Assembly: GCF_964355755.1 (NCBI RefSeq)
Contig: NC_092672.1
Location: 25,116,437-25,180,436, forward strand
Reading direction: 5' to 3'
Length of the DNA stretch: 64,000 bases
Origin: Antedon mediterranea
Lineage: Eukaryota; Animalia; Echinodermata
The notes under the pieces are model-generated. The model did not search any database, was not told where the DNA came from, and saw only the letters and a program-made list of their open reading frames with translations. A program made the translations under genes and the position numbers. Positions 21,710-58,180 of this stretch are shown piece by piece. Numbering within the stretch: the stretch's first letter is position 1; each line of letters starts with the position of its first letter.

Positions 21710-22084
21710 GTTTGTTGATAGTTGACCTATTGTAATCAAATTCTATAAAAAATTAGTAAAGGATTCTAACTTAAATAACTGTACATTGTGAAGCTCATTC
21801 TGCCGTGGAACAGTAATCGAAAAAGATAAAAATCAAAGCTATACACTAGTAGAGCAAGCTTTCCTATATGATTAAAACTATTTGACGAAAAGGCATATTT
21901 CAAACACATTAAAGGAAAAGTTAAGCACACAAAAAATGGCAAAATTACATGTTTTTGCATTGTTATTTTGTGAACAATGGAATAGCCCGTCGCCTGTGTG
22001 AGATATCTTTTGTGTCCACCTGACATTTTTTTTTTGTAATGTTTTTGTTTGTTTTTTTTTTTAAAAGACAAATACACTTAAATA

Positions 22085-22834
22085 CTATCGTCGAGTCATG
22101 TTTCTGTGCGTTCTTCCTCCTCCTCCTCCTCCTCCTCCTCCTCCTCTTCCGGTAGAACGTCTCTCGTCCGACACGTTAAGAAGACTCGAGTATTCGTAAT
22201 CGTTTTCATCATCCATCGCTGTAGAATTTTTTGAATGCACGGTACTGGTGGAGCGCCAATGATGATAAACGCCGTATATCATATGGCATACAGACGCTAC
22301 GACGGTGAGTATGAGTAGAACGCGGTCGGTGGTTGGCGTGAATGAAGAGCTGCAGAAAGGTTCGTTCATGTATTGCGTTGTCAAGTAACAGTACGGTATA
22401 CTGTACGCCAAAAGGCCAAGCAATACGGCAGCGATAACTGGTACGGTGTGCAGCACCATGCGTTCCCATACGGCCGGTTGTTTGTATCTGATCAAATGTT
22501 TCTCCAACGTGAAACGAGTCATGAGATAAAGAAAGTTTACGATGATCGTAAACACATCTGCTCCAACGGCGTACAAAAGTGGACGACTGACAAACACAAA
22601 ATCAATCTGACCTGGATGTCGTTCAACTCGTTCACTTTCGTTCACAAGAAATATGGCAGAAATCAACACGCCCAACATGTAAAACAGTTTCTGAAGATGC
22701 AACACAAAATGATCGTGCCATGCTCGTATACCTTTCAGAGAGTATACCTCATGCATGGCATCGGTCAAAACGCTTGGAATCTCGGCCAATGTATTTCCAA
22801 ACGAACGAAGGCTAATTTCGTCTCCGTACCCCAT
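22085..22834 (-). CDS. Viral multi-pass (~4 TM) membrane protein
   Basis: 249-aa ATG ORF with four hydrophobic segments and a hydrophilic C-tail. Confidence 0.7.
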   Translation of the reverse strand: MGYGDEISLRSFGNTLAEIPSVLTDAMHEVYSLKGIRAWHDHFVLHLQKLFYMLGVLISAIFLVNESERVERHPGQIDFVFVSRPLLYAVGADVFTIIVNFLYLMTRFTLEKHLIRYKQPAVWERMVLHTVPVIAAVLLGLLAYSIPYCYLTTQYMNEPFCSSSFTPTTDRVLLILTVVASVCHMIYGVYHHWRSTSTVHSKNSTAMDDENDYEYSSLLNVSDERRSTGRGGGGGGGGGGRTHRNMTRR

Positions 22835-30627: not shown

Positions 30628-31504
30628 TTATATCTCGTTTGATAAATAATACACTCTATCGGTCGGTATGCCGTAATATTTAATGCTATGATAGTAGTGA
30701 ACGGATACTATGGGCTTCATCGGTTGTTTGAATGCAACATTAACCATTCTACCGACAAACGCTAAACTAGACTTGTCTTTGACGACTGCCGTTACGTTTA
30801 AATGATGATGATGATGATGATGATGATTAGAGGAGATGCGAATAACCCGATGATCGTGGTACACGTGTGATTCGATGTTGACGTTACATTCGTCAACAAG
30901 CAATCGCATTTGCTCGCCATTGATTTTCCATTCAACTTTGGCTGTACTTGGTACACCGATGAGATACAGGATGTTTGACGTACCTGTGACGTTCCATTGT
31001 TCGCTGTAGGTGAGTAGCTGTACACTCGATATGTTCTCGATGGAAAAGCGCGATGGCATATTGTACGAAATGATATCAATATGGTCAACAGTATGCCATA
31101 ATACAGGCAATTTATATGCGCACAATTCAGTGGCGACAAAGGTCGGTGCATTGTCTTGTTTATGCAATTTTAATTCTTTTAAAATGGTAAGATTTTTAGC
31201 GGAGAAGATTACTTGAAGAAACAAATAATCGGTCGTGACATCGTAAAATTCTTGATAGTTTGTGTTTACGCGGACCGTAACCATTCTGCCTCGAGCGCAA
31301 TGTCTAATCGTTAGTAAGTTATCGTTTACGAGTACTTTGTCATTTTCTTGTGTTGTAAAGTATTTTACAGTTAGATTGTACAGTTTTGCAATGACTGACT
31401 CGTAGTAAAAATTGAAAGTTACTGACTCTCCAAGTACCGGATGTAGACTAGACATTACAATCGAGCCTATCGTTGATGCGTCCCGATTGCATGGATGAGT
31501 CGCG

Positions 31505-31535
<31 letters not shown>

Positions 31536-33057
31536 AATCGAGAATATGTGACGGATGATCGCATCTGTCTTTAATGTTCACTACACACATGCCGTCATCG
31601 TAACACGTTCCCGGTCGATTGAAATTCACGTTTCTTTTGTTGAAATAATAACAGTAACGCAAACTGTTTGAATCCACCTGCTTCGGACCTGTATTCTGCC
31701 ACGGATTCGAGTCTTTACACACGTCGACCAAATGATCGATGAAAAGAGATGGGTTAGATGGTTCGTTTAAAACCTGCACGTGTGCCCTACCCCAATATGT
31801 TTTGTTAACAATACACTCGTAACCTCCCGTATCCCAGCGATTGGCATCGAAAATTGTCAGTGTATGCTCGTGATAGTTGTTACAAGACGCCTCTATCGCT
31901 CTTGAATGTTCAATTTGCTTTCCGTTCCGTATCCACAGAACATTATTTGAGGACGTGGACGTGGTGCAACGTAAAAGTATCATTCCTTTCGGTTTTACAA
32001 TTTGTATCGCGGGTGACAGTATCGCCGGCATTCTCTTAATGGTACCAAATTCTTCTGTCAATGTCGTTGCACACACGTTTCCGATAGTCAACGACGACGA
32101 CGACGACGGTTTCACCTGTTCTTCTATTGTGTTTACCACTCGAACGTGTACAGATATCGATTCATAATCACTGGATCCTATGCACGAGTACAAGCCTTGA
32201 TCGCGAACCGTGATCTGTTCCAGTAGAAGCGAATGTGTTTTGTTTGTTCTACACTGTTCACCTCTCATGGTACCGTGACGTTTCGGATCGGGTATCATCC
32301 ACGTCACTAAAGTTTCTCTCGGAAACTGACATAGTAGATTCAACGTTTGTCCGATGGCCACGGTTTCGGCGTCCACCGTTATCGTTGCAATTCGAGCCGG
32401 TACCTCCCTTCTACACGGATCATCCGGAACGATGCAACACACAGAATATTTTGTTTCTAAAAGTGCACATAGGCTGTCGTATGGCCATGATCGAACCTTC
32501 CTCACTGATATCGTATCGTATCCACAGATGCGTACTTGATCAATAATTACATTTCTGTCTGTAGACGCTATTGCCAGTGAATAACACGTCTCGAACATAG
32601 AAGAAGACGGTTCGGACGTAACCCTTTGGCTATTGCGTAACACTTGAATGCTTGAAAAGTTTCGAGAACCGGACGAAATGGTGATGGTGGCGACTTCTCG
32701 AGGTTGCATGATGTACGCGTCGACGACTTGTACGACAGCATCTTTTTGCGTTCGTGTCCACGTTCTACGCGATCGATTGTATTCATCGATGTAACACGAG
32801 TACGTTCCAGTGGCATCCTTTGTCATGGCCATTACCTTCAGCATACTTGATGTCATGTCCAACGTGATGTGGGCGATAACCATACCCACGTCACGCTTCG
32901 GTAGATTCCATCGTATGTGAGAAGCTCTTCTGCTGTCCGTTGTGCATCTCAATTCGAACGACGTGTATGGTCTTGCAACCACGTACTCTCTGTCCATTGT
33001 CAACGTACCGCGTGTAGTAGCACTACAAAGTAGAGTAATCAGGCAAAGTCGAAACAT
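30628..33057 (-). CDS. Viral secreted/surface multi-immunoglobulin-domain glycoprotein
   Basis: Signal peptide MFRLCLITLLCSATTRG; three clear Ig domains (FELRC..IRW..ATGTYSC; LNLLC..VTW..DQGLYSC; ILLRC..VLWIRNG..DTGGYEC); many NxS/T sites; no C-terminal TM seen. Confidence 0.85.
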
Positions 33058-34877: not shown

Positions 34878-35744
34878 TTATTTCTGACAATGACGAGGAC
34901 GAAGAAGATTACGTCGACGACGTCCATGTACGTTTACAGTATTGTATACGTTCCATAGAACATTGCGCAAACATTCGATAGCATCCGTCTGACCGTGTCC
35001 AAAGAATCCTTGTTTATTCGACGACTGATAACGTTGTCGTAATATAAAAAACGATCGGACGTAATTGTATACGTCCGATTGATTTCTGGAAGTCCATATC
35101 TCATTTCGGAAAGCATCGATGTCGGCGTGAAAATCTAACACTTCTCCTTGTTCTCGTTCTTTACACTCATGAGTCCAGTCGCCGTTATAGAGCAGAGTCT
35201 GAAACGAATAAGCGACGTGTCGATTCAACAAATTCTGTTGCTCCTCCATCGATGAGAATTTTCGTTGCTCGTTACATTGCTGAAATGTTTGTACGTCGTC
35301 GTATTCATGCATGGCATAGAAAACGTTCTTTAGTGCGTCCAACACGTCCGAATTGCCGTATCCAAAGTAGAGGGACAACGAAGACGTTTGGTAATCTTGA
35401 TAGGACTCTCGGATACGAAGAAAACGACGTATAACATCGGCAGCCGTGTTACGTCCCTTTATTTCCCACATACTACTTCTCAATCGTTGTAACTCACGAT
35501 GAAGGTTCAACTGTCTCGGATCGTAACCGCTAATCTCCCAAAAATTGACGAGATTCCCATGCAAGGCAGCCGATAGATATTCGAAAACTTCGGCACTGAC
35601 ATCTTCTTGTGAGATTTGTTTACGTTTTTCTATCAGATAGTTCATGTCCACGGTATTAGCGCCATTATGACGAGCGTAACATCTATGAATTTCAGATTTC
35701 ATGATGTCCAATCGAACAGAGTTGCGTGGCCTCTCGTGTGACAC
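34878..35744 (-). CDS. Viral protein with an internally duplicated helical domain
   Basis: Two copies of (L/F)R..(M/I)W......(I/V)R.F..(I/L)R..YQ.....FG.G..D....L.NV. Confidence 0.75.
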   Translation of the reverse strand: MSHERPRNSVRLDIMKSEIHRCYARHNGANTVDMNYLIEKRKQISQEDVSAEVFEYLSAALHGNLVNFWEISGYDPRQLNLHRELQRLRSSMWEIKGRNTAADVIRRFLRIRESYQDYQTSSLSLYFGYGNSDVLDALKNVFYAMHEYDDVQTFQQCNEQRKFSSMEEQQNLLNRHVAYSFQTLLYNGDWTHECKEREQGEVLDFHADIDAFRNEIWTSRNQSDVYNYVRSFFILRQRYQSSNKQGFFGHGQTDAIECLRNVLWNVYNTVNVHGRRRRNLLRPRHCQK

Positions 35745-36792
35745 AAAACGTCCTTTTTATAATATACAACGGAAATTTTTACAACGAGAGCTGTTACCAA
35801 ATGTGCTGTTTTCACGATACGTGTCGTCCGTCAACGCTCCAATGGGGTTGTATGGCCGAAATGAAATTGTTTACGCGGTAGAAAAACCATCCGATCGTGA
35901 TGATGTACGTCTGAATATGCGATGGCCGGAAAATGCCATGGTTTTGGACGAACGAAACGCAGTTAGATGTAACGTTCGTCTTAAAGAAGCCGTCATGGAT
36001 GGATGTCATGCTGTAGTTCGTATGGTCTCCGGCAACCGAGTTGCGTGGCGCATACTCGATCCTAAACTGCACATAGCTTACGTTGGCGACTGCGATGAAA
36101 GAGGAGGAGGAGGAGGAGGAGAAGCAGGAGAAGAAGAATATAATGGTGACGCATTTGAAGAAAAAGAAGAAGAAGAAAACCCATCATGGACTATACATCG
36201 TCGTCGTAGTCGTCGTTTTTATCGTGCTGGTGGTGATGGTGGTTGTGGTAGAATGTCGTATACAGACTATGACTTTTCGTTAGAAAAATCTCTTTGCGAA
36301 CATTTCGGTGAACGTTACTACGACAAAACACTCGATAAAATGTACGTGTCTGCAATTGCAATACGTACAGGTGAACAGCCGGAAAAGTTGTTGAAAGAGA
36401 TGACAAAGAAGCTGACAAAGTGTCGAGTGTTTCCTACGAGCGGTTGTTGGTTATCGACCAGTAAGAGTTTCTACAGAACGACGGCCACGTGGAAGTATGC
36501 CGGACTTAAACCAAAAGAGCTGTTTTCGCACGACGGGAAAAACAACGAACGCCACGTTGTACGACACGATCCAATGAGATGCGAACTGTGCGTCGAAGAG
36601 CATTCGAGATGTTGCCGTCCGTCTCATCTATGTTATGGATCGACAAAGTCCAACGTGAAAGATATGCGTTTGCGCCAGGGTGTTGCCGACATAGTGCACG
36701 GTCTACGTGACGATGAAAACATAGACAAATTCCGAAATCTTGTCGATTCGTTTGCAACGCTCGTCATACGAGAAGAGAACACTTCACGATGA
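35701..36792 (+). CDS. Viral protein with C-terminal His-Me finger (HNH / His-Cys box) endonuclease domain
   Basis: SGCW..VVRH..C..C..CCRPSHLCYGS..SNVKD matches the His-Me finger consensus. Confidence 0.75.
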   Translation: MMSNRTELRGLSCDTKRPFYNIQRKFLQRELLPNVLFSRYVSSVNAPMGLYGRNEIVYAVEKPSDRDDVRLNMRWPENAMVLDERNAVRCNVRLKEAVMDGCHAVVRMVSGNRVAWRILDPKLHIAYVGDCDERGGGGGGEAGEEEYNGDAFEEKEEEENPSWTIHRRRSRRFYRAGGDGGCGRMSYTDYDFSLEKSLCEHFGERYYDKTLDKMYVSAIAIRTGEQPEKLLKEMTKKLTKCRVFPTSGCWLSTSKSFYRTTATWKYAGLKPKELFSHDGKNNERHVVRHDPMRCELCVEEHSRCCRPSHLCYGSTKSNVKDMRLRQGVADIVHGLRDDENIDKFRNLVDSFATLVIREENTSR

Positions 36793-37572
36793 TGACGCCA
36801 AAGACCGCCGTTGACCGTCTTCAATCTGATGATGATGATGATGATGTTGATGCTGCGTTTCACCGTTTCGACTAAGCAGAATCGCCACTCTATCGTCCAC
36901 GACTCGAGAAGATTCTGATTCCGAGCACAGAGTTTCGGTGTCGAGAGGAAGTTTTACGTTCTGTGCCATCTCGTTGACTTTATCGTTGTAGATTGTGGCC
37001 AATGTCAACGTTTTCTTGTAATTCTCTTCGCTGACGTGAGGAGGTAGATTCAACAGTGTCGACTGTAAAGAATTGCTCAGACTGTGCGTGTCTATTTTGA
37101 TTTTCATATCGTTCAGATTACCGTCCATCGAGTTTAGCATACTGAACATTTGCTCGTATTGTATTTTTTTTCGCATTAATGTACGTATCTCAACCTTTAC
37201 GGTTTCCTTGTCAAATTCATCTTCAGCACTAATGTCTTCGTCGTACATACGATTGCGTAGACATATCATTTCGGATTGAATCTTTTGCATACAGTCTTTG
37301 GTGTCTTGCTTTTTGGCGTCAAGCAATCGAACGTATCCTTCGAGACGACTGTGGAACTCTGTTATCTTTTCACAAACTTTACTCGGATCTTGTACCTTAT
37401 TCACCGCTGCTTCTTCGTTTTCATCATTATCATTTTCATCTCCTAGCAATCGATATCGTCCACAGTTGCAAATCGTCGACATGATCCACGAGAACATTTT
37501 GAAAACGTTTCGTCTCTTTTCAGCGGTGGTGATGGTGGTGGTGGCGGTGATAGAAGGTCGAACGGTTGTCAT
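36784..37572 (-). CDS. Viral Snf7/CHMP4-like ESCRT-III protein
   Basis: Helical hairpin followed by IRTLMRKKIQYEQMFSMLNSMDGNLNDMKIKID, similar to the CHMP4 segment ALQALKRKKRYEKQLAQIDGTLSTIE. Confidence 0.6.
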   Translation of the reverse strand: MTTVRPSITATTTITTAEKRRNVFKMFSWIMSTICNCGRYRLLGDENDNDENEEAAVNKVQDPSKVCEKITEFHSRLEGYVRLLDAKKQDTKDCMQKIQSEMICLRNRMYDEDISAEDEFDKETVKVEIRTLMRKKIQYEQMFSMLNSMDGNLNDMKIKIDTHSLSNSLQSTLLNLPPHVSEENYKKTLTLATIYNDKVNEMAQNVKLPLDTETLCSESESSRVVDDRVAILLSRNGETQHQHHHHHHQIEDGQRRSLASSS

Positions 37573-39755: not shown

Positions 39756-41255
39756 TTAAAACCCATATTTTTTTCGAAGTGAACCGTTGTTTCGTAGACG
39801 ATCATCTATTCCGGAATCAGTGATGGTCATGTATTCGATAAAAAAGAACATTTTCCGCAAATGTCGATCCAAACTCTCCAGGTCTTTAGCGTTCTTTTCC
39901 ACTCGATCCTTCCACGACTTTGCCGTCATCTGAACAATGTCTTCTGCATAAGAAGCAATGTTCTCCTGAACGTACCTGAACGGTATCAGAGAATCTTTGT
40001 ATCGAAAACAGAACATGTTGTTGTATTGTGCCAACAAATTGTGCCACTTGGTCAATGTCGTATCATCTTCTCGACAGAATGAATATATCGGTTTCACAAC
40101 GTTCGACGATACTTCGATGAATGGAAATGCGTATCCTGACTCGAATATGTTAACTTGCGTCTTTACACCGACGCCAACGACATGCGTGTGAAAATCGGAT
40201 CCTAGAAAAGAGGCTGCAATCAAAGTGTTGAGACTAGCGTATGGACAGTACAGCGTGTCTCTCGCCCATTTGCCTAGCCTGTAACACGAAGTGATCCTGG
40301 GCAGTTTGCGTACCAGTAGAGCGTCTGATTGAAGGGTGGTGAGCGTAAACAAACAGTCACTGTCACACGTTTCCATTAGAATGTTGGACGAAGGAATCTG
40401 TACGTTGAAGCGTAGAATATCATGAAATGTGCCAAACAGTATGTCTGATTCCGATGATACGTTTCGATCGGGCAGAAAACTCTCGAAATCACAGCACCAC
40501 TTTTCCAGCGTTGACGAAAGGCATGTGGACAGACGACACCAGTCTCGTGTCGTGCTGTTATCAAAACCGGCTCCGACGACCGTGTAAACGGCGTATTCGC
40601 GGTCGTATTGTCGATCCTTTTCGAACGTTGATCGAAGAGCTTGAACGACACCCGATTTGTTTTCTCTGCTACTGATGAACGATTCTATACTGCCGATGTA
40701 ACTGCCGTCTTCTTGTCGACACACAGACGTGCCCTTTTCAGCGGCAATCGCGCACAGATTCTCGTCTACACTACCTAATTTGTTCACTTGGTTTTGAACT
40801 CCCTTTTTTTTAACGCTTCGTCTACGTTTCAATTCCACTGACTTTGCATACGGAGCTGCGCCGTCCACAAACAACAGCAGTGCCTTCAGCGAAACATTAT
40901 CACTTTTCCGTCGTTGCACTTTTAAAACGTCATCCGCGCATGCCAGTGCGTCTTTGAGAAATTCTGTTAGTACATCTTGAACGGTGAAATGTTGATACAC
41001 GTTCACCACACCGTTGTCTGTATTGCGCCAATTCTTACTTTCCAGGTTTCCGATAACGCTCGAGTTTTCGATACAGGATTGTAGGTCTGGAAAACATTTC
41101 TTAACACGAACTCCTATATTACGTTTAACGATCTTGTGAAATGTCTGCGTAGCGTCCACCATCACGGCCACAATATCGTTACAGTTTTCACCAAACGATT
41201 GATTAATCTTAGCATTGCTGTCAATGACGTCAGAGAATTTTCCCTTGAGCCCCAT
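39756..41255 (-). CDS. Viral FEN1/XPG/XRN-type PIN-fold 5'-3' nuclease (herpes vhs/UL41-like fold)
   Basis: MGLKG start, MVDA, LFVDGAAPYAKSVELKRRR, ESD, CDSDCL and LGSDF acidic motifs in canonical order. Confidence 0.85.
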   Translation of the reverse strand: MGLKGKFSDVIDSNAKINQSFGENCNDIVAVMVDATQTFHKIVKRNIGVRVKKCFPDLQSCIENSSVIGNLESKNWRNTDNGVVNVYQHFTVQDVLTEFLKDALACADDVLKVQRRKSDNVSLKALLLFVDGAAPYAKSVELKRRRSVKKKGVQNQVNKLGSVDENLCAIAAEKGTSVCRQEDGSYIGSIESFISSRENKSGVVQALRSTFEKDRQYDREYAVYTVVGAGFDNSTTRDWCRLSTCLSSTLEKWCCDFESFLPDRNVSSESDILFGTFHDILRFNVQIPSSNILMETCDSDCLFTLTTLQSDALLVRKLPRITSCYRLGKWARDTLYCPYASLNTLIAASFLGSDFHTHVVGVGVKTQVNIFESGYAFPFIEVSSNVVKPIYSFCREDDTTLTKWHNLLAQYNNMFCFRYKDSLIPFRYVQENIASYAEDIVQMTAKSWKDRVEKNAKDLESLDRHLRKMFFFIEYMTITDSGIDDRLRNNGSLRKKYGF

Positions 41256-46665: not shown

Positions 46666-47637
46666 CTAGGTAGTAGGTAGACACGGACACTGAGAGAATC
46701 CATCCCATACGTTCATGCACGCGTCACACGTAATCAAATGGTCTTCTTCGTCGCTTACCACCGTCGCTGACGATTGTGGTGAATCAACAAAGATTATTGG
46801 CGAATCGGTAATCGATTGGTCATTCAATGTATTACTACTATACGTTTCTTCGCATAACATTGGATCCAAATCGATATGGTTCAACTTTCTTGTTATCTCA
46901 TGATCAACGATGTCATCATCATCATCATGATATTCCCGGGCGTTGTCGGCATGTAAACATTCTTCATTATTGTACTGCAACACTGGATCGTTTTCGTATT
47001 GTATTTCAGTCACTGTATCGTTGCGCGTGTACCAACAAGGACATTGACCGTTTCCGTCCCATGTCTGTAAACAGTGTTCGCATTGAAAGTGATCTGTCAA
47101 TTCTGCCTTATAGCTATTTTTCTTCTCTTCCTCAACGAACAGCACCTTTATACTATCGTTATCAATTGGCAAATCAATATTGTACAATCTTCTTGTCATC
47201 TCACCATCATCATCATGACATTCCCCGGCATGTAAACTTTCTTCATCACCAGCGTCGTACTGCATTTCAGTCACTATATAGTTGCAACAAGGACATTGAC
47301 CGTTTCCGTCCCATGCCTGTAAACAATATTCGCATTGAAAGAGATCTGTCAATTCTGCCATATAGCTATTTTTCTTCTCTTCCTCAACGAACAGCACCTT
47401 TATACTATCGTTATCAATTGGAAAATCAATATTGTACAATCTTCTTGTCATCTCACCATCATCATCATGACATTCCCCGGCATGTAAACTTTCTTCATCA
47501 CCAGCGTCGTACTGCATTTCAGTCACTATATAGTTGCAACAAGGACATTGACCGTTTCCTTCCCATGTCCGTAAACAATATTCGCATTGAAAGAGATCTG
47601 TTAATTCTGCCATATTTCTTTCCCAAACGAACAGCAT
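46666..47637 (-). CDS. Viral acidic protein with four CxxCxxxW(D/E)GxxQCPC modules; three lie in 252-bp tandem repeats
   Basis: Repeat anchors at 47079, 47331 and 47583 (252-bp period, frame preserved); fourth diverged motif CDACMNVWDGFSQCPC at the C-terminus. Confidence 0.8.
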   Translation of the reverse strand: MLFVWERNMAELTDLFQCEYCLRTWEGNGQCPCCNYIVTEMQYDAGDEESLHAGECHDDDGEMTRRLYNIDFPIDNDSIKVLFVEEEKKNSYMAELTDLFQCEYCLQAWDGNGQCPCCNYIVTEMQYDAGDEESLHAGECHDDDGEMTRRLYNIDLPIDNDSIKVLFVEEEKKNSYKAELTDHFQCEHCLQTWDGNGQCPCWYTRNDTVTEIQYENDPVLQYNNEECLHADNAREYHDDDDDIVDHEITRKLNHIDLDPMLCEETYSSNTLNDQSITDSPIIFVDSPQSSATVVSDEEDHLITCDACMNVWDGFSQCPCLPTT

Positions 47638-47696
47638 CTCTATACGACGATGCGTAATCAACTAACTAATGTCATCTCATTGCCTCTTTTTAAGTA

Positions 47697-47951
47697 CTAC
47701 AAATAGCCTCCTCGTAACAAAATAGAAAATTCGTCCTCGTACCCTAAACAATGCGGATCCTCGTAGCAAAAAAGAAATTCGTCTTCGAACTCAAGAAGAC
47801 CGTGCGGATCCTCGTAGCAAAAAAGAAAATCGTCCTCGAACTCGAGAAGACCGTGCGCATCCTCGTTGCAAAAAAGAAAATCGTCCTCGAACTCGAGAAG
47901 ACCGTGCGGATCTTCGTAGCAAAAAAGAAAATCTATCGATAGGTCCTTCAT
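47697..47951 (-). CDS. 84-aa microprotein with four tandem LxCxE motifs (51-bp repeat)
   Basis: ATG at 47951; (D/E)FLFC(Y/N)ED repeated four times, each followed by an acidic stretch. Confidence 0.6.
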   Translation of the reverse strand: MKDLSIDFLFCYEDPHGLLEFEDDFLFCNEDAHGLLEFEDDFLFCYEDPHGLLEFEDEFLFCYEDPHCLGYEDEFSILLRGGYL

Positions 47952-47985
47952 AGTGTTTTGCTTGACAAAAATAAAATATACATAC

Positions 47986-48016
<31 letters not shown>

Positions 48017-48463
48017 ATGTATGATGCAACATCCGTGATGGCAGCAGGGTGTAGACTGTGCTCGTATGACGTTGACAGTAAGCAGAGACAATTTTGCAAC
48101 AATGATCCTAGTTCACAAAACTATCATCCCGTGTTGCACGGTGAGCACATATTCGAAAAGTACGGCGGTAGAAATCAAAAAGAGATCCTTCAGAGTATCA
48201 CAACCAGCATAGCTACAATAGACACATCAATGAACGATATCACGTTGGACGAGGTTCGTCTTCATTTCGATCAGCACATTATACCCAGCTATCGTCGAGT
48301 GTGTGAAGAGCAATTGTTGATTTGCAGACGTTTAGAGAGATTCATGGCGGATACGGTGATGATGGAAGACGAAGTACCGTCACCGAGTGATTTTAAAACG
48401 TATAGAACCGTGTGTCAGGATACACAAAAACTTGCCAAAGAGATTGAGCAAATAAACGCTTAA
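48017..48463 (+). CDS. Viral small protein with CxxC...HxxxH putative Zn site
   Basis: GCRLC ... EVRLHFDQH; helical C-terminus. Confidence 0.65.
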   Translation: MYDATSVMAAGCRLCSYDVDSKQRQFCNNDPSSQNYHPVLHGEHIFEKYGGRNQKEILQSITTSIATIDTSMNDITLDEVRLHFDQHIIPSYRRVCEEQLLICRRLERFMADTVMMEDEVPSPSDFKTYRTVCQDTQKLAKEIEQINA

Positions 48464-48488
48464 TTTACACACGAGCACTTGCAATACT

Positions 48489-48851
48489 ATGAGTTCGATA
48501 TACATTCATTGTATTCATACACAGACAATCTACCGCATAATAAAATGTACTCGAGATGCAGAAAGCACGTTAGTTGAAATCGTTTTATTTTTTCTCTGTT
48601 GTGAAGGAAATGAATTTGTACGCACTGAACATCTAAAACCATCCAGATATCCGTCTTGGATCAATTCGATCGTTGTTCTAACTACCAGAAAATTAAAATC
48701 CATTCGACATGGGGCAGATTTTGTTAACTCACGGCAGCACAGTTTCACGAGTTTGCTTACGTTGGAAAGAAACAACGTCGTCGCGGGCTCATCAGCGGCT
48801 TTAACTGTAGTTAAGTGTAGTGAAGGCCAACAAACAAACCGTTCAAAATAA
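48489..48851 (+). CDS. Small viral hypothetical protein
   Basis: 120-aa ATG ORF ending at AATAAA. Confidence 0.4.
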   Translation: MSSIYIHCIHTQTIYRIIKCTRDAESTLVEIVLFFLCCEGNEFVRTEHLKPSRYPSWINSIVVLTTRKLKSIRHGADFVNSRQHSFTSLLTLERNNVVAGSSAALTVVKCSEGQQTNRSK

Positions 48852-49266
48852 AGGTGAAGAGAAAACGCAGACCAATTTGTTGTGTATTTTTTAATTGGTA
48901 GTGGAATAATAAAAAACAAAAACAAACATGTGCCTCAACCAATTCTTTATAATTATTATCATCATCATCATCGGTATTTGAGCACCAACTAAGTATTCGG
49001 TAGTTACTACTGGTTTTTTTTTAATACCACTTACGTTTTTGTCGGTCATGTGTATTACATAGTTTGTTACCATCATCAACGTCCACTCAGATAATTTACG
49101 TTTTTGCTTCTCTGGCCGTTGTTATTTGTATCGTTTACAGTACTACTAGCTGTCATCGATATTACAAACACACGCGCACAGTAATGAAATAAGAAGAAGA
49201 CATTAAGGTTTGTGGTGCATTTATTTTTACTTTCTTATGTTATACATGACATTTTACACAATTGTT

Positions 49267-49908
49267 TCACACCACCGTTGCTCCGTATTCGGCCATCAGT
49301 TGATCGCACGTGTCTAGTAATGGATCTTCAGGAAACTGCACCGGTTCAATTGCATGACAAACATTTGCTTCTATTTGATTGACGTCGGCACAGTCTGTTT
49401 CAAGATCACCATCAACATAATCCTGTCCGATCAATAGATTCAGCTTTCGTATGACTTCTGTAACGGTTTGTTTGTACGGTAAGTTTGCTCTTCTGGCCAA
49501 CATTTGACGATCCGCTTGCTCCTTCATAAAGTCTTGTTTGTTGATTTCACATTGAATTTTTAAAAGTTTGATCATCTCGGTCGCCCCCTTGTATTTGGAA
49601 CATAATTCCAAAGTTTCGGGCAGTTTCCTTCGCAACTGTTCATACTTCACAGTCATTTCAGCGAGTCTTGCCTTTAGGCTGTCTATCTCGTATCGTTGTG
49701 TCTCCTCCTTTACCACATCCCTATGCGCGTCCATGGCGGCATGTGTCAAGTCTTTGTACATGTTTTGCGGTAACGAGTTGGCGTACTTTTCGGCAGCGAT
49801 TACTCTTCCTCTCAGTCGATCTTGTTCTTGTAACATACTCAACTTATCAACTTGCATAGCTTCAAGTTCCTGTTTCAATTCCGCAATCATATCCTTTGAC
49901 TTTCCCAT
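49267..49908 (-). CDS. Viral coiled-coil protein with NEMO/optineurin/ABIN-type UBAN motif
   Basis: IKLLKIQCEINKQDFMKEQADRQML compared with NEMO [25 protein letters not shown]. Confidence 0.75.
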   Translation of the reverse strand: MGKSKDMIAELKQELEAMQVDKLSMLQEQDRLRGRVIAAEKYANSLPQNMYKDLTHAAMDAHRDVVKEETQRYEIDSLKARLAEMTVKYEQLRRKLPETLELCSKYKGATEMIKLLKIQCEINKQDFMKEQADRQMLARRANLPYKQTVTEVIRKLNLLIGQDYVDGDLETDCADVNQIEANVCHAIEPVQFPEDPLLDTCDQLMAEYGATVV

Positions 49909-49992
49909 ACCGAACGAATCTGAATGATTTTTTTTTTTTGCTCTGACACGTTATTATATAGTGTGTGTGTGTGTGTGTGTGTGTGTGTCGCG

Positions 49993-51043: not shown

Positions 51044-52870
51044 ATGGAAGAGAAACGTTTGCTTGTCAATCATCACAAAGCGCGTGAAGATCTAGCATAC
51101 GTCGGTCAACGACCGAGAACGTTGGGCTACAAAGGATCTGAACAGATTCGAGTATGTACATCGAAAGACAAAACGATTATGGTTTGGATAATACCCACGT
51201 ACGAGAGTAAAAAGCCTAAAGGGTGCGTAAACATTATTGGAATGGCAAACGATCAACTTGTTGACGCGTTGTTGACGTTCATGAACACGAATAGAAACTC
51301 ATACTTTGTCGCCACTCTTTCCTATCAGGATCGAATCTCTTGCTTGAGTATAGCCGAGAAGATTGGCTGCAAGGACACCATCTGCGTGTTTACGTCTGCC
51401 GTGTACGAGATGTGCATGCACGATCTGCTGAAAGCCAGAAGAACCGCCGACAGAATTTCATCTTGGTCGTTGACGAATGTCGTCGACTCGGCCATTTGCA
51501 GAACGTTTGGCAAAATTAAACTGCACGAACAGGAACTCAAGTGGGAAGAGTTGATGACCTGGCTGGATACGGCCAGACACGATCAGCCGACAGAAGTAAA
51601 ATCGCACGACAGTGTGTACTATATGCCAGAATCGTATCTTTGGCATCTTGTGCACACATGGATTAACAAAAACGGCAAAACGGAACATCGAAGAAAACAA
51701 CACGCTCTCGTTAAACTCATACGAGGCAGATTACTGAACGATTCGGAAATGCTGTACAGAATCGCGTTTGTACGTCTCTCCTCCATCAATCAACTGGTTC
51801 AAGATTTGAGACATTATGTAAAACAAGTGTTTCATCATCATCGATTGAACGAGCAATCGGCGTTGGGTGTTCGTCACAGTCATCGACAAATTGCCACTTT
51901 CGGAACAACAACGCCACCTCCACCACCATCAATACCACAACAGCAGCTGGAAGAATACGTACACGTTACCGCTTCGTTCATGACGGCACCGTTCTATCGA
52001 ACTACCGTAGTTCGGAATCTGGCGTACACAGTATCTCCAGCAGACGAGGAGAACGCGACGATGCGTCTTCATCGATACAATGCCATCGTTGGAACGTTCG
52101 TAAGATTGCAAAACTCTACAACGAAGCGTACAGACGAATCGGTATGCCTGACGAGAATGAACGAAGATTTGTTGATACTAAGCGGTGGTGGAGCTAAAGA
52201 ATTTGAAACGTTCGATTTGGATAGTGGTGCGTGGAGCGTGGAACAGTCATTGGATACGGGCGTCGGCGGTGAATTGTACACGTCGCACGCAACGTGTCAA
52301 CACGGCCGCGACCTATGCGCATGGTACGTGGATCAAGCGGGTGATCATCTTCTGGTGATGTTGCGACGTACCCGAACAACGTGGAACGTCCTACTCAGAC
52401 ATCCAATTTCCATGGACGAAAACGAAAAGCAAAAGAATGTGAAACGTACCAGTGTGCATTCGTTCTTTGACGCAAACACGATTGTAGCGTTCCACGGCAA
52501 CACCGTCATCACTGTACACGTACCGTCGGGAAGGTTCGTGAAAACAACGGCACCATTGCATCCTACGCCCGGTGAATGGATAGGCGAGGTGAAACACGAA
52601 AACACTGTTCAACGCATCGGCTGTAACGGCATTGTAGACACTTTTGTTTTCCAACAGTCTGTTGCTGCTGCTGCTGCTTCTTCTGCTGCTGTCGACGAAT
52701 TTCGAATACAGATTGTCAACAGAAAAATAAAACTCGAGCACGGTACTATTGTTGCGTGCGCACCGCTTCTCTTTCCCGATGGTACAGTGCGACCGACAGT
52801 GCTGCATGCATCCGTTTTAAATTCCACAAAGAAACAACACAGATTCTCTCTCTTTCGACGATCAAGAAGA

Positions 52871-52901
<31 letters not shown>

Positions 52902-52915
52902 AGCTGAAAAGTTGA
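51044..52915 (+). CDS. Viral BTB-BACK-Kelch-like protein (putative Cullin-3 adaptor)
   Basis: VDALLTFM..CLSIAEKIGC (BTB end), ESYLWHLVHTWI..R..LVKLIR (BACK), LILSGG..FETFDLDSGAW..SHATC (degenerate Kelch). Confidence 0.65.
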
Positions 52916-55266: not shown

Positions 55267-55909
55267 TTATTGATAAACTTTATTAGAAAGAAAGCAAGTC
55301 CACGCCAACCACAGAATAAACGTCATGGCAAGATCATCACGAACACCAGCCGTCTTTCCACTTATCGTGATTTTACCGTCGGATTTTACGAGTCTTCTGA
55401 AGTTACACAGTTGATCCTGTAAAATGCTCATCTGTCCGTCATCGATGTCTTGTGCAAACACGACTCGATCGTTCTCCAGCAACATTTGTGACAAATGTAC
55501 CAGATTTCCTTTGTCTCTTGTCCAAATTCCGACACACCTACGCCCGTCCGTTCGACGTCTCTCCTTTTCGAAAGATATGTCTACTGACGTACCGGCAAAA
55601 CGATCCGTTACTTGCTTTGCCATGCGAGCGGCGTGTGCGTGCGATGTATTACGTTCTACGTACACACGAACTGGCATGAATGTCAACTGATTGTACGTAG
55701 CCAAGGTCCTGTTCACCGTGTCTATTATTAGTTGGGCGTGCATGTCCAGTAAAGAATCCATACGATCCATATGTGCAACGTGGTGTTTCAAAGCAAGTAT
55801 CTGCGTAGTAAAATAAAGGTTATTACGATTAATAAATGCTTTTCTTTTCTTTTTTTCGTCTCAACGTATAGTAGGGAGAGAGAGAGAGAGTGAGAGAGAG
55901 AAACTGTAT

Positions 55910-55991
<82 letters not shown>

Positions 55992-57265
55992 AAAAGAAAA
56001 GGAAAAAGAGAATCAATTGGTAGCGTAATGTTGACGAATGCATTTCATCCCGTGTATTGCAATCTGGAATTTCTACAAGAACGACAAAGAATGTTTTTCG
56101 AATGGAAGAGCGCTATAGATAAGGCGGCTATAACGGACGAGATTAACGCATCCGCATTACCTATTGTCGAAAAGATTGTGAGAACGTGTGGTAGAGAGAC
56201 AGTGTTGTTGGTGGAAATGAATGATGCAACCGTACAAGATATGGTCGAACAACGACAAAAACAATCGATTCTGGCTTACACAAGAACGGCAATGATGGCC
56301 GCCACGCAATTTGAATTGGGTCGACAACGAGAGATATCGCAATTGAACACGTTTCTCTTACAGGCAATAGAAATGTTCAATTTGACATTTTTACCAGATG
56401 TAGAACGTGAGTACAGAGCATCAACGCCAACCGATAAACATTGGATAATAGATAGCATTCGCAATATCATCGTACAGCTGTTGACCAACACGTACGATCA
56501 ACCAATGTGGCATTCCGTCGGATGCGGATCACCGTTGGCCGTGGCCGTTGCAACGATTCGAAATCGAGTACAGAATACCAGTTGTTGTGGTGGTCTGTCT
56601 ACGATTCGGGCCGGGCTCCCAGGGCACGCTACGTACGCGCTTCGAAGAATTATGGAGAGAAGAGGCGCCGCGTGCAAAATACCATCCGTTCGACTTACCT
56701 GCCTAACGTCCGACGTCGTTAACACACCGGCAACCAATCCAATGCCGGACACGTCCGACGGAGTTGGATCGACGGCAATCAACAGACCCGATGAGAAGCC
56801 AGATCTTGTAGTGGATCTTCTTTCGTCTGAAAACAGTTTGGTTAGCAATTTACCGGAAAAAAGTCGTTCGGCGAGTGAAGACGGTGAACAGACGGGAATG
56901 CCCATACACTCTAGTTCATAGCTTCCGGTGGCTATGAGGTTCATCATCTGCTGAACGACATTACCGTCGTTTCCATCAATGTGTTCCGGTACCAAATGTC
57001 GCCTGTGAGCGCACACTGTTCGCGTTCCTTTCTCGAAGCACGCATCGCACAGGTACGACTGAGTAATGTATTTAACCAGTGCACGTCCATCGTGTTTAAT
57101 ATTCACAAACTCTTGCGACCAGTGATCACTCGAAGTCATCGACGATGTTAAAAGAACCGACACGTTCTTAGGTTGAAAGATTGGCAGAGTTGATAGCATA
57201 GCCGTTTGCTTTATCCACGGATACTCGTCCATCCATCCCATATCACAACCGGTTCCTCTTGAAGC
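55267..57265 (-). CDS. Herpes-type terminase large subunit (UL15/UL89/ORF29-like), last two exons: 56699-57265 and 55267-55800; the Walker A exon lies upstream, probably beyond the window
   Basis: ttttcag|ASRGTGCDMGWMDE (Walker B)..LTSS (motif III)..YLC..C..C.H..P..SYELECMG..IAVDP..SGIG..VRQ|gtaagt, then cgcag|ILALKH..VYVERN..QLCNF..ISGK..RDDLAMT. Colinear with HSV UL15 exon 2; both exons are phase 0. Confidence 0.93.
55913..55986. repeat. (TA)n microsatellite, preceded by (GA)n, in the terminase intron
   Basis: Pure TA run of about 70 bp. Confidence 0.95.
56028..56921 (+). CDS. Viral hypothetical protein nested antisense in the last terminase intron, overlapping the preceding exon
   Basis: ~297-aa ATG ORF; its last 223 nt overlap terminase exon 56699-57265. 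Confidence 0.65.
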   Translation: MLTNAFHPVYCNLEFLQERQRMFFEWKSAIDKAAITDEINASALPIVEKIVRTCGRETVLLVEMNDATVQDMVEQRQKQSILAYTRTAMMAATQFELGRQREISQLNTFLLQAIEMFNLTFLPDVEREYRASTPTDKHWIIDSIRNIIVQLLTNTYDQPMWHSVGCGSPLAVAVATIRNRVQNTSCCGGLSTIRAGLPGHATYALRRIMERRGAACKIPSVRLTCLTSDVVNTPATNPMPDTSDGVGSTAINRPDEKPDLVVDLLSSENSLVSNLPEKSRSASEDGEQTGMPIHSSS

Positions 57266-57283
57266 CTGAAAACAAAAATAAAG

Positions 57284-58180
57284 ATGACAACAGCTGCTCT
57301 GAACGCGTATCTACAAGCAAATCGTTTCGACATATATCACGTGGACGAACTTCACGAATGTGTACCGAATAGATGTACGTTCGTGCAACCCATGCAAGAC
57401 GGTGAGAATTTCGTGTGCATGTCGTCGCTACGCACGCACACCTGTACATTGTCGGCAGACTGCGTCATGGAAAATTTAGATCACAACACTCGAAGATGCG
57501 CATTGACTGGTAAAGAATTCTATACAGACGAATATGAACCGATTGTCGTTGGACTCGATACGCCGCTATACGACAACATGCAAGAGGTTAGAAAGACGAC
57601 AACGACGCGAAATAAACACGATAAAATGTTTCGTTTCGGCACAACCGTACGTCAGGTTCTGGAACGATTGTACGATCGAAAGAAACGATGCAAGTACAAC
57701 AACGTAAATTTCTTTGAACACAAGGCCTGTGAAATGATTTTGGAGAACATGGGCAAACAGAACATCGTGTCCGTAATCAGATACACCTTTCTAAAACACG
57801 TATCAGCAAACAGATTACCGGATACAGCGCTTCCAGAGGAAAACATGCTGGACGACGTGGTAGACTTTATTTTTGACGTTATGTCTGTGTTTATGTACTA
57901 CTCGACGTTACAATATTCCAAGAAAGACTTTCTACTCAGCAACGGTCACGAAACGGTCGTGTACTTACTAAAGAGCACGTTGAATGGTATTCGTTCGGCG
58001 GAAAGCGTCATTCTAAAACCACGCTTTCCTCAACTGAAACCCATGCCAGGTGATCGGTTGATGTTTCCGATATTTCAGGTGTCGACCTCTCAACTGACAG
58101 CGTGCTCGAGGTTGTTACAGAGCATGGCGAATGAAAAGATTTGTCGTTATCATTTGGCAAAATTAAATCGAGAATCTTAG
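57284..58180 (+). CDS. Candidate UL92/ORF31-like late-gene transcription factor nested in the terminase intron
   Basis: HEC..C.F...FVC....HTC....C.....RRCALTG Cys/His pattern, as in the HCMV UL92 and KSHV ORF31 N-termini. Confidence 0.6.
   Translation: MTTAALNAYLQANRFDIYHVDELHECVPNRCTFVQPMQDGENFVCMSSLRTHTCTLSADCVMENLDHNTRRCALTGKEFYTDEYEPIVVGLDTPLYDNMQEVRKTTTTRNKHDKMFRFGTTVRQVLERLYDRKKRCKYNNVNFFEHKACEMILENMGKQNIVSVIRYTFLKHVSANRLPDTALPEENMLDDVVDFIFDVMSVFMYYSTLQYSKKDFLLSNGHETVVYLLKSTLNGIRSAESVILKPRFPQLKPMPGDRLMFPIFQVSTSQLTACSRLLQSMANEKICRYHLAKLNRES

Follow-up and report, generated by a model that had tools for sequence, protein, structure and literature searches.

Is a short coiled-coil gene, set in what appears to be viral DNA, a captured copy of the UBAN domain found in NEMO, optineurin and the ABINs, and could its product still bind ubiquitin chains? 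This question is raised by the open reading frame P0001 in the 64-kb window, by which we mean the whole stretch of DNA that was analysed. Judged by sequence comparison, P0001 is homologous to the CC2-UBAN region of NEMO and optineurin; since three features that define a canonical UBAN are missing from it, it is best classed as UBAN-derived. The features on which the following sections draw are listed here.

22085–64000, no strand assigned: gene-dense herpes-like viral block, coding fraction 0.91, CpG observed/expected 1.43, running off the window end
49267–49908, minus strand: P0001, single-exon ORF of 213 aa without internal stop, a viral UBAN-family gene
49954–49960, minus strand: TATA-like element about 50 bases upstream of the P0001 ATG, a consensus match from a motif scan only
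49774–49908, minus strand: N-terminal coiled coil, residues 1–45, 20/43 identical to P0003, helix 2–45 in the model, no family
49576–49707, minus strand: CC2-like coiled coil, residues 68–111, in ungapped register with animal NEMO/optineurin-type proteins, within the Pfam stretch 68–155
49489–49575, minus strand: degenerate UBAN core, residues 112–140, by alignment to NEMO
49477–49479, minus strand: proline at the NEMO L329 position, the leucine zipper beyond it not kept
49270–49323, minus strand: short C-terminal helix behind an acidic linker, 8/18 identical to P0003 (linker 5/34)
49220–49225, minus strand: AATAAA polyadenylation-like signal about 40 bases past the P0001 stop, a consensus match from a motif scan only

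P0001 lies in a herpes-like viral block next to animal DNA

Bases 1 to approximately 22,000 of the window are animal DNA, in which all seven scanned exon-like frames match Myosin_head, the coding fraction is 0.02 and the CpG observed/expected ratio is 0.50. An abrupt switch at about 21960–22110 leads from this host part (myosin exons at 0.5–12.4 kb, then repeats) into the viral block, and represents either an integration or an assembly join. The rise in coding density and the CpG shift relative to the host part support the viral setting that had been assumed for P0001. The more specific label, herpesvirus, holds in part: the block is viral, herpes-like, intron-poor and dense, whereas membership in the Herpesvirales would rest on two sub-threshold matches, one to DNA_pack_C, the C-terminal part of a herpes-type terminase (E 0.001 and 18.4 bits, where the cut-off is 22.8), and one to Herpes_UL92 in a gene at 57284–58180 (E 0.0004, 20.7 bits, cut-off 21). 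No capsid or polymerase gene was identified in the viral block, PHROGs and NCBIfam scans (21 and 23 ORFs, respectively) did not place the virus, and a literature search gave no match identifying it. The terminase segment had no relative in the protein and contig collections covered by word-index and viral-contig searches.

The terminase-like gene (55267–57298, minus strand) is apparently broken up into two or more pieces: a Cys/His segment comes first and the DNA_pack_C segment second, and the interval separating them contains a 297-aa ORF on the opposite strand as well as a (TA)n run. The Cys/His segment carries what we take to be a nuclease-like DP motif, and no Walker A segment was found in the long frames of the window. 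Elsewhere in the block, an 809-aa protein (30628–33057, minus strand) that begins like a signal peptide and contains three Ig domains (Ig_3, E 4e-19) is probably a second host-derived gene. A 262-aa coiled-coil ORF (36784–37572, minus strand) resembles ESCRT-III when judged by eye, a likeness for which Pfam and the PDB gave no support. Weak matches were seen within 39756–41255 (XRN_N nuclease, E 0.009), 35701–36792 (PHROG endonuclease, E 0.025) and 51044–52915 (BACK, E 0.013). Most viral ORFs, including those of 1091 and 1682 aa, have no family, and the fold model of a 328-aa ORF neighbouring P0001, with a pLDDT of 29.6, gives no information.

Parts of the region are contained in nine public runs from four studies and three coded organisms; none of these is listed as RNA, and X9 is guessed to be RNA. 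Two contigs of organism B (X5 and X6, from two runs of one study) span the whole P0001 ORF with seven substitutions and no listed indel. Relative to the window, codons 1–140 contain two synonymous and no non-synonymous changes, and codons 141–213 one synonymous and four non-synonymous changes, a pattern that may fit constraint on the coiled coil, given small numbers and a boundary chosen afterwards. The organism B contigs and one organism C contig leave the window sequence at 49172, just downstream of P0001. P0001 thus borders an isolate-variable region, as would be expected of an accessory gene more than of a core gene. The adjoining interval, 46666–49170, contains an ORF of 323 aa in which Cys-rich units recur (zf-C3HC4_3, E 1e-4) and an 84-aa tandem-repeat ORF; with the organism B and C contigs diverging at its edge, it is a probable variable accessory region.

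Architecture of P0001

The initial annotation described a coiled coil that ends in a UBAN-like motif. This description suits the helix and not the protein: the motif (residues 115–137, 49498–49566) ends a long helix of residues 109–141 in a low-confidence model, but 76 residues follow it. The single-chain model contains helices 2–45 and 109–141 at a pLDDT of 57.5, a low confidence, and a Foldseek search with it returned nothing at E ≤ 0.001 in BFVD or the PDB. Residues 1–67 and 145–213 have no informative Pfam or PDB match. Neither an N-terminal kinase (IKK)-binding region nor a C-terminal zinc finger was detected in Pfam and PDB searches, in agreement with the stand-alone architecture proposed earlier. 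The short C-terminal helix is a candidate partner-binding motif, and could possibly act as one.

The CC2-UBAN region stands out from the coiled-coil background

CC2-LZ (PF16516, the NEMO UBAN family) is the best of six Pfam families for P0001, with an E value of 9.2e-7 and 29.7 bits, and the second-best family reaches E 0.009. The score lies below the curated CC2-LZ cut-off of 35.3 bits, also for the isolated stretch (31.6 bits). All five PDB sequence matches are to NEMO, at weak E values of 0.11–0.65, and none of the 34 other ORFs of the window matches CC2-LZ at E ≤ 0.1. The initial annotation had reasoned that a generic coiled coil would give no UBAN profile match; the Pfam search did give one, below the cut-off. 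Among 31 scanned frames, 29 match CC2-LZ, at 26.7–77.3 bits, and of 29 motif-canonical animal segments, nine fall below the cut-off and two below P0001.

A UBAN profile was built from 57 animal UBAN segments. A metagenome motif scan yielded 112 loci, which together with one viral-contig match gave 113 translated frames; seven were dropped (three chance non-animal matches and four short or odd frames), and the remaining 106 condensed to 57 non-redundant rows. P0001 scores 11.2 bits on this profile, a value reached by none of 36,836 windows drawn from the other frames of the 64-kb stretch, none of 95,678 from other locus frames, and none of 3,663 coiled-coil-like decoy windows (maximum 0.5). It was reached by 0 of 5,000 column permutations, and by 18 of 5,000 when the heptad class was preserved. 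Canonical UBAN rows, each of them itself inside the profile, score at least 47, which marks the P0001 copy as degenerate. With scoring restricted to columns not fixed by the search pattern, 2.5% of the decoys reach the P0001 score. When HMM scores were compared, P0001 (15.0 bits) came behind two host pieces (16.5 bits), which probably correspond to a second UBAN-like motif in a host protein. Two animal UBAN proteins (L052 and L066) show an apparent second, degenerate UBAN-like stretch right after the first; the top-scoring decoy window falls there.

Profile alignment of P0001 against 20 host proteins with hhalign gave a probability of 74% over 69 ungapped columns, compared with 0.2% and 9.6% for two viral coiled-coil controls. 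For the 42 residues upstream of the motif, which lie outside the search selection, the exact register was the best of 171 registers against the host rows. This register score was equalled by 12 of 780 and 8 of 333 decoy windows, so that the upstream signal is modest. The top five of the 31 host rows in the register comparison are presumably of NEMO/optineurin type, a label assigned from their motif, and identity to the best-aligned host row is 26%. With P0001 alone as query, a search of 1.84 billion proteins returned no host UBAN at E ≤ 0.001, and the ESM Atlas returned generic coiled coils only.

P0001 could also be an ordinary coiled coil that resembles the UBAN motif by accident, a reading that draws on its score below the Pfam cut-off and on the blank Atlas and Foldseek searches. 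The motif alone can indeed arise by chance, since a phage Mu gp48-like protein (L001:1257–1793, also L058) contains a perfect UBAN consensus match without a CC2-LZ match. However, the absence of a CC2-LZ match is common to the chance cases L001 and L064, the decoys miss the P0001 score, and the orthologue P0003, described below, carries the full motif in the same register with its own CC2-LZ match, which largely refutes a chance likeness. We regard a generic coiled coil as highly improbable. The UBAN origin claimed in the initial annotation is upheld by the rank of CC2-LZ among the Pfam families, by the lower scores of the decoys and by the canonical motif of the orthologue.

The orthologue P0003 retains a canonical UBAN motif

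An exhaustive search of 1.84 billion protein representatives with P0001 produced two matches, P0003 and P0004. The UBAN profile gives P0004 a score of −36.6; this protein, a repeat coiled coil that bears the name CEP290-like, was rejected because its match reflects composition. With 253 aa and an E value of 1e-16, P0003 is a singleton encoded on a 24,652-base Logan/ENA contig, and its alignment with P0001 is collinear, starting at residue 1 and reaching the C-terminal helix, with 30–32% identity; from this shared architecture and its low-complexity runs, we infer that it is viral. Its UBAN keeps the equivalents of NEMO Y308, D311, F312, E315, R316, R319 and E320. P0003 matches CC2-LZ with an E value of 9e-8 and 32.9 bits (cut-off 35.3), and its first 16 PDB matches are all NEMO, ABIN-1 or optineurin (best E 6e-4). 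The two-sequence profile of P0001 and P0003 aligned to the host alignment with a probability of 94.5%, and matches optineurin and ABIN1/2. Of all the evidence, P0003 with its canonical motif speaks most strongly for descent of the family from a true UBAN.

Further viral relatives were not retrieved: word-index searches had no match for P0001, whether limited to similar lengths or extended to longer ones; viral contigs were searched with P0001, with P0003 and with the terminase segment, each time without a match; and when IMG/VR was scanned for the UBAN motif, the sole match was a phage sequence that fits it by chance. IMG/VR contains few animal viruses, so the blanks in that collection weigh little. 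In IMG/VR, 18 loci (L114–L131), several of them on long contigs, match a head-to-tail polyubiquitin junction pattern, and two of these were confirmed by translation.

Identity between P0001 and P0003 peaks in four segments, residues 1–43 (20/43), 87–111 (10/25), 112–140 (13/29) and 196–213 (8/18), and is 15–24% outside them; the UBAN core is therefore among the most conserved parts. The N-terminal coil and the C-terminal helix are conserved like the UBAN, which suggests further partners. P0001 might accordingly be a ubiquitin-reading adaptor for viral assembly or trafficking, much as CEP55 and optineurin serve the cell, in which the terminal segments link ubiquitinated cargo to viral or ESCRT/autophagy machinery and immune evasion is not the main role; CEP55, a divergent UBAN that works outside immunity, lends this some plausibility. 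No EABR, LIR-flanked or zinc-finger module was found in P0001, however, the ESCRT-III likeness of the nearby ORF lacks database support, and a position bordering an isolate-variable region suits an accessory gene better than a core one. We consider such an adaptor distinctly unlikely.

UBAN contacts kept and lost in P0001

Using NEMO numbering anchored on F312 from the cited papers, P0001 keeps the equivalents of L301, K302, Q304, I307, K309, D311, F312, E315, R319, L322 and A323. These include the distal-ubiquitin residues, present as Q119 (Q304), D126 (D311), F127 (F312) and E130 (E315). Three motif positions are lost, with Y308 replaced by N123, R316 by Q131 and E320 by Q135. In the proximal, M1-selective patch formed by R316, R319 and E320, P0001 keeps only R134 (R319), whereas P0003 keeps the whole patch. 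The NEMO alignment confirms the earlier reading that the DF core, the glutamate and the distal arginine are kept while tyrosine has become asparagine and ER has become EQ, and it adds two departures that had been missed, the change of E320 to Q and the proline at L329 that breaks the zipper. The zipper half scores −24.4 in P0001 and −19.3 in P0003, whereas the lowest value among 56 host rows is 1.7, and a proline within the zipper stretch occurs in one of 57 host rows. A continuous leucine zipper after the motif is absent from both P0001 and P0003.

Published mutants bear on several of these positions. Recognition of K63 chains is lost in the NEMO mutants Y308S, F312A and L329P (PMC3406058), and the effect of Y308S also appears in the accessible part of another (PMC3743401). 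F312, R316, R319 and E320 are described as forming the M1-binding surface, and the Drosophila Kenny equivalent of R316A/R319A/E320A as losing M1-chain accumulation (excerpt of PMC6462001). In the optineurin–diubiquitin structure, the contacts to the tail of the distal ubiquitin come from D474 and E478, and those to the proximal ubiquitin from R479 and R482 (PMC4999505); in P0001, D474 (D126), E478 (E130) and R482/R319 (R134) are kept, and R479/R316 and E320 are lost. Two positions mutated in patients, E315 and R319 (PMC2118353, available text), are both kept.

Since Y308, R316 and E320 are lost and mutants impair binding, an M1-selective decoy fits P0003 better than P0001. The initial proposal of an M1-ubiquitin decoy thus stands in so far as most distal-ubiquitin contacts and R319 are kept, and does not stand in its M1 selectivity, which the loss of R316, E320 and Y308 leaves unsupported for P0001. 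Taken together, the four departures may have abolished ubiquitin binding. A complex prediction for two copies of P0001 residues 72–146 (no alignment) with natural linear di-ubiquitin scored 0.43, and an unrelated control partner scored 0.52; these values count neither for nor against binding.

Two readings take the loss of ubiquitin contacts at face value. P0001 could be a relic, from a family that began as a UBAN, whose own lineage no longer binds ubiquitin or NEMO-family proteins and whose helix serves as a dimerising scaffold for the terminal motifs. The loss of three motif positions and the zipper, and a score that is a quarter of that of the weakest canonical row, agree with a relic; against it, the motif residues Q, D, F, E, D and R persist over about 70% divergence from P0003, with only 15–24% identity on either side, and we judge it unlikely. 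The second reading, which seems to us unlikely but slightly less so than the relic, is a ubiquitin-blind dominant negative, in which the P0001 CC2-UBAN pairs with host NEMO or optineurin into mixed dimers that cannot read chains, the contact loss being the purpose. Preservation of the coiled-coil register and core over about 70 residues, combined with loss of known binding-dead positions, would be expected of such a protein, and both protomers build the binding site in UBAN dimers, with dimerisation coupled to binding (PMC6817665, available text). Yet P0003 keeps the canonical contacts, so the family did not start in this way; P0001 itself retains the D311, F312, E315 and R319 equivalents; and 26% identity to the best-aligned host row is low for selective heterodimerisation.

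A possible ubiquitin-chain decoy

Our first-ranked reading, held tentatively and with somewhat less than even confidence, is that P0001 acts as a weak, non-M1-selective ubiquitin-chain decoy against ubiquitin-dependent immune signalling. The virus would have captured the domain from an animal gene of NEMO, optineurin or ABIN type. P0001 would form a parallel dimer, with its CC2 part and the conserved coil at the N terminus taking over from the lost zipper in holding the chains together, and the retained D-F-E-R and L-Q patch would grip the distal ubiquitin together with its tail; on long chains, avidity would make up for the low affinity. Having no IKK-binding region or zinc finger, P0001 would occupy chains on signalling complexes or on viral cargo without relaying the signal, and chain occupation could dampen NF-kB or selective autophagy. 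At best, P0001 would resemble an inhibitory UBAN protein. Two cellular proteins speak for this decoy: optineurin suppresses NF-kB by competing with NEMO (PMC5413910, available text), and the divergent NOA of CEP55 binds M1-Ub4 with a KD of 27 µM (PMC6817665, available text).

A broader proposal, which we consider possible though doubtful, is that the block belongs to an undescribed herpes-like animal-virus lineage with a captured NEMO-type UBAN family, in which P0003 is a canonical linear-ubiquitin sponge and P0001 has been retuned to linkage-blind binding or to NEMO-dimer poisoning.

A search of the full-text literature, with most subscription journals outside its scope, found no virus-encoded UBAN, NEMO, optineurin or ABIN homologue, and a virus-encoded UBAN is provisionally new to the literature. 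If true, a captured and conserved viral UBAN family would add a new class of mimic, and would mean that DNA viruses of the host group are restricted by proteins reading linear or K63 chains. A viral decoy would then hit the ubiquitin-reading step of NF-kB signalling and xenophagy, marking it as an antiviral bottleneck in that group. The pair of P0003, canonical, and P0001, degenerate, offers a natural comparison of which contacts are needed by a decoy. Having no relative in the protein and contig collections searched, the surrounding virus also deserves interest in its own right.

Comparison with known UBAN proteins and viral antagonists

The closest likeness of P0001 is to the CC2-LZ region of NEMO/IKK-gamma, its best Pfam and PDB match, with which it aligns without gaps through CC2 and the UBAN core and shares the equivalents of D311, F312, E315, R319, Q304 and L301. 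Unlike NEMO, P0001 is virus-encoded and single-exon, has no IKK-binding region or zinc finger, and has a zipper interrupted at the L329 position; it has also lost Y308, R316 and E320, all of which P0003 keeps. Optineurin and ABIN1/2 resemble it in having a UBAN without a kinase-activating module, which makes them competitors of NEMO. P0001 is much shorter than these proteins, its contacts are degenerate, and no LIR, TBK1-binding or A20-binding module was detected in it.

The NOA of CEP55, like P0001, probably lacks the motif tyrosine and the last glutamate. It is a divergent UBAN/NOA that keeps L, Q, D and F, and the weak M1 binding (27 µM) is a property of CEP55 (PMC6817665, available text). 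P0001 differs in having no EABR or UBZ domain, and CEP55 is a cellular protein that acts in cytokinesis. Known viral antagonists of NEMO or optineurin include MCMV M45, molluscum MC005 and MC159, HCV NS3, bluetongue NS3 and viral proteases, as set out in a 2025 review (PMC11854354). These proteins bind, degrade or cleave NEMO or optineurin, and none is a captured UBAN homologue as far as the available text of that review describes them (PMC11854354); what P0001 would have in common with them is the presumed target pathway.
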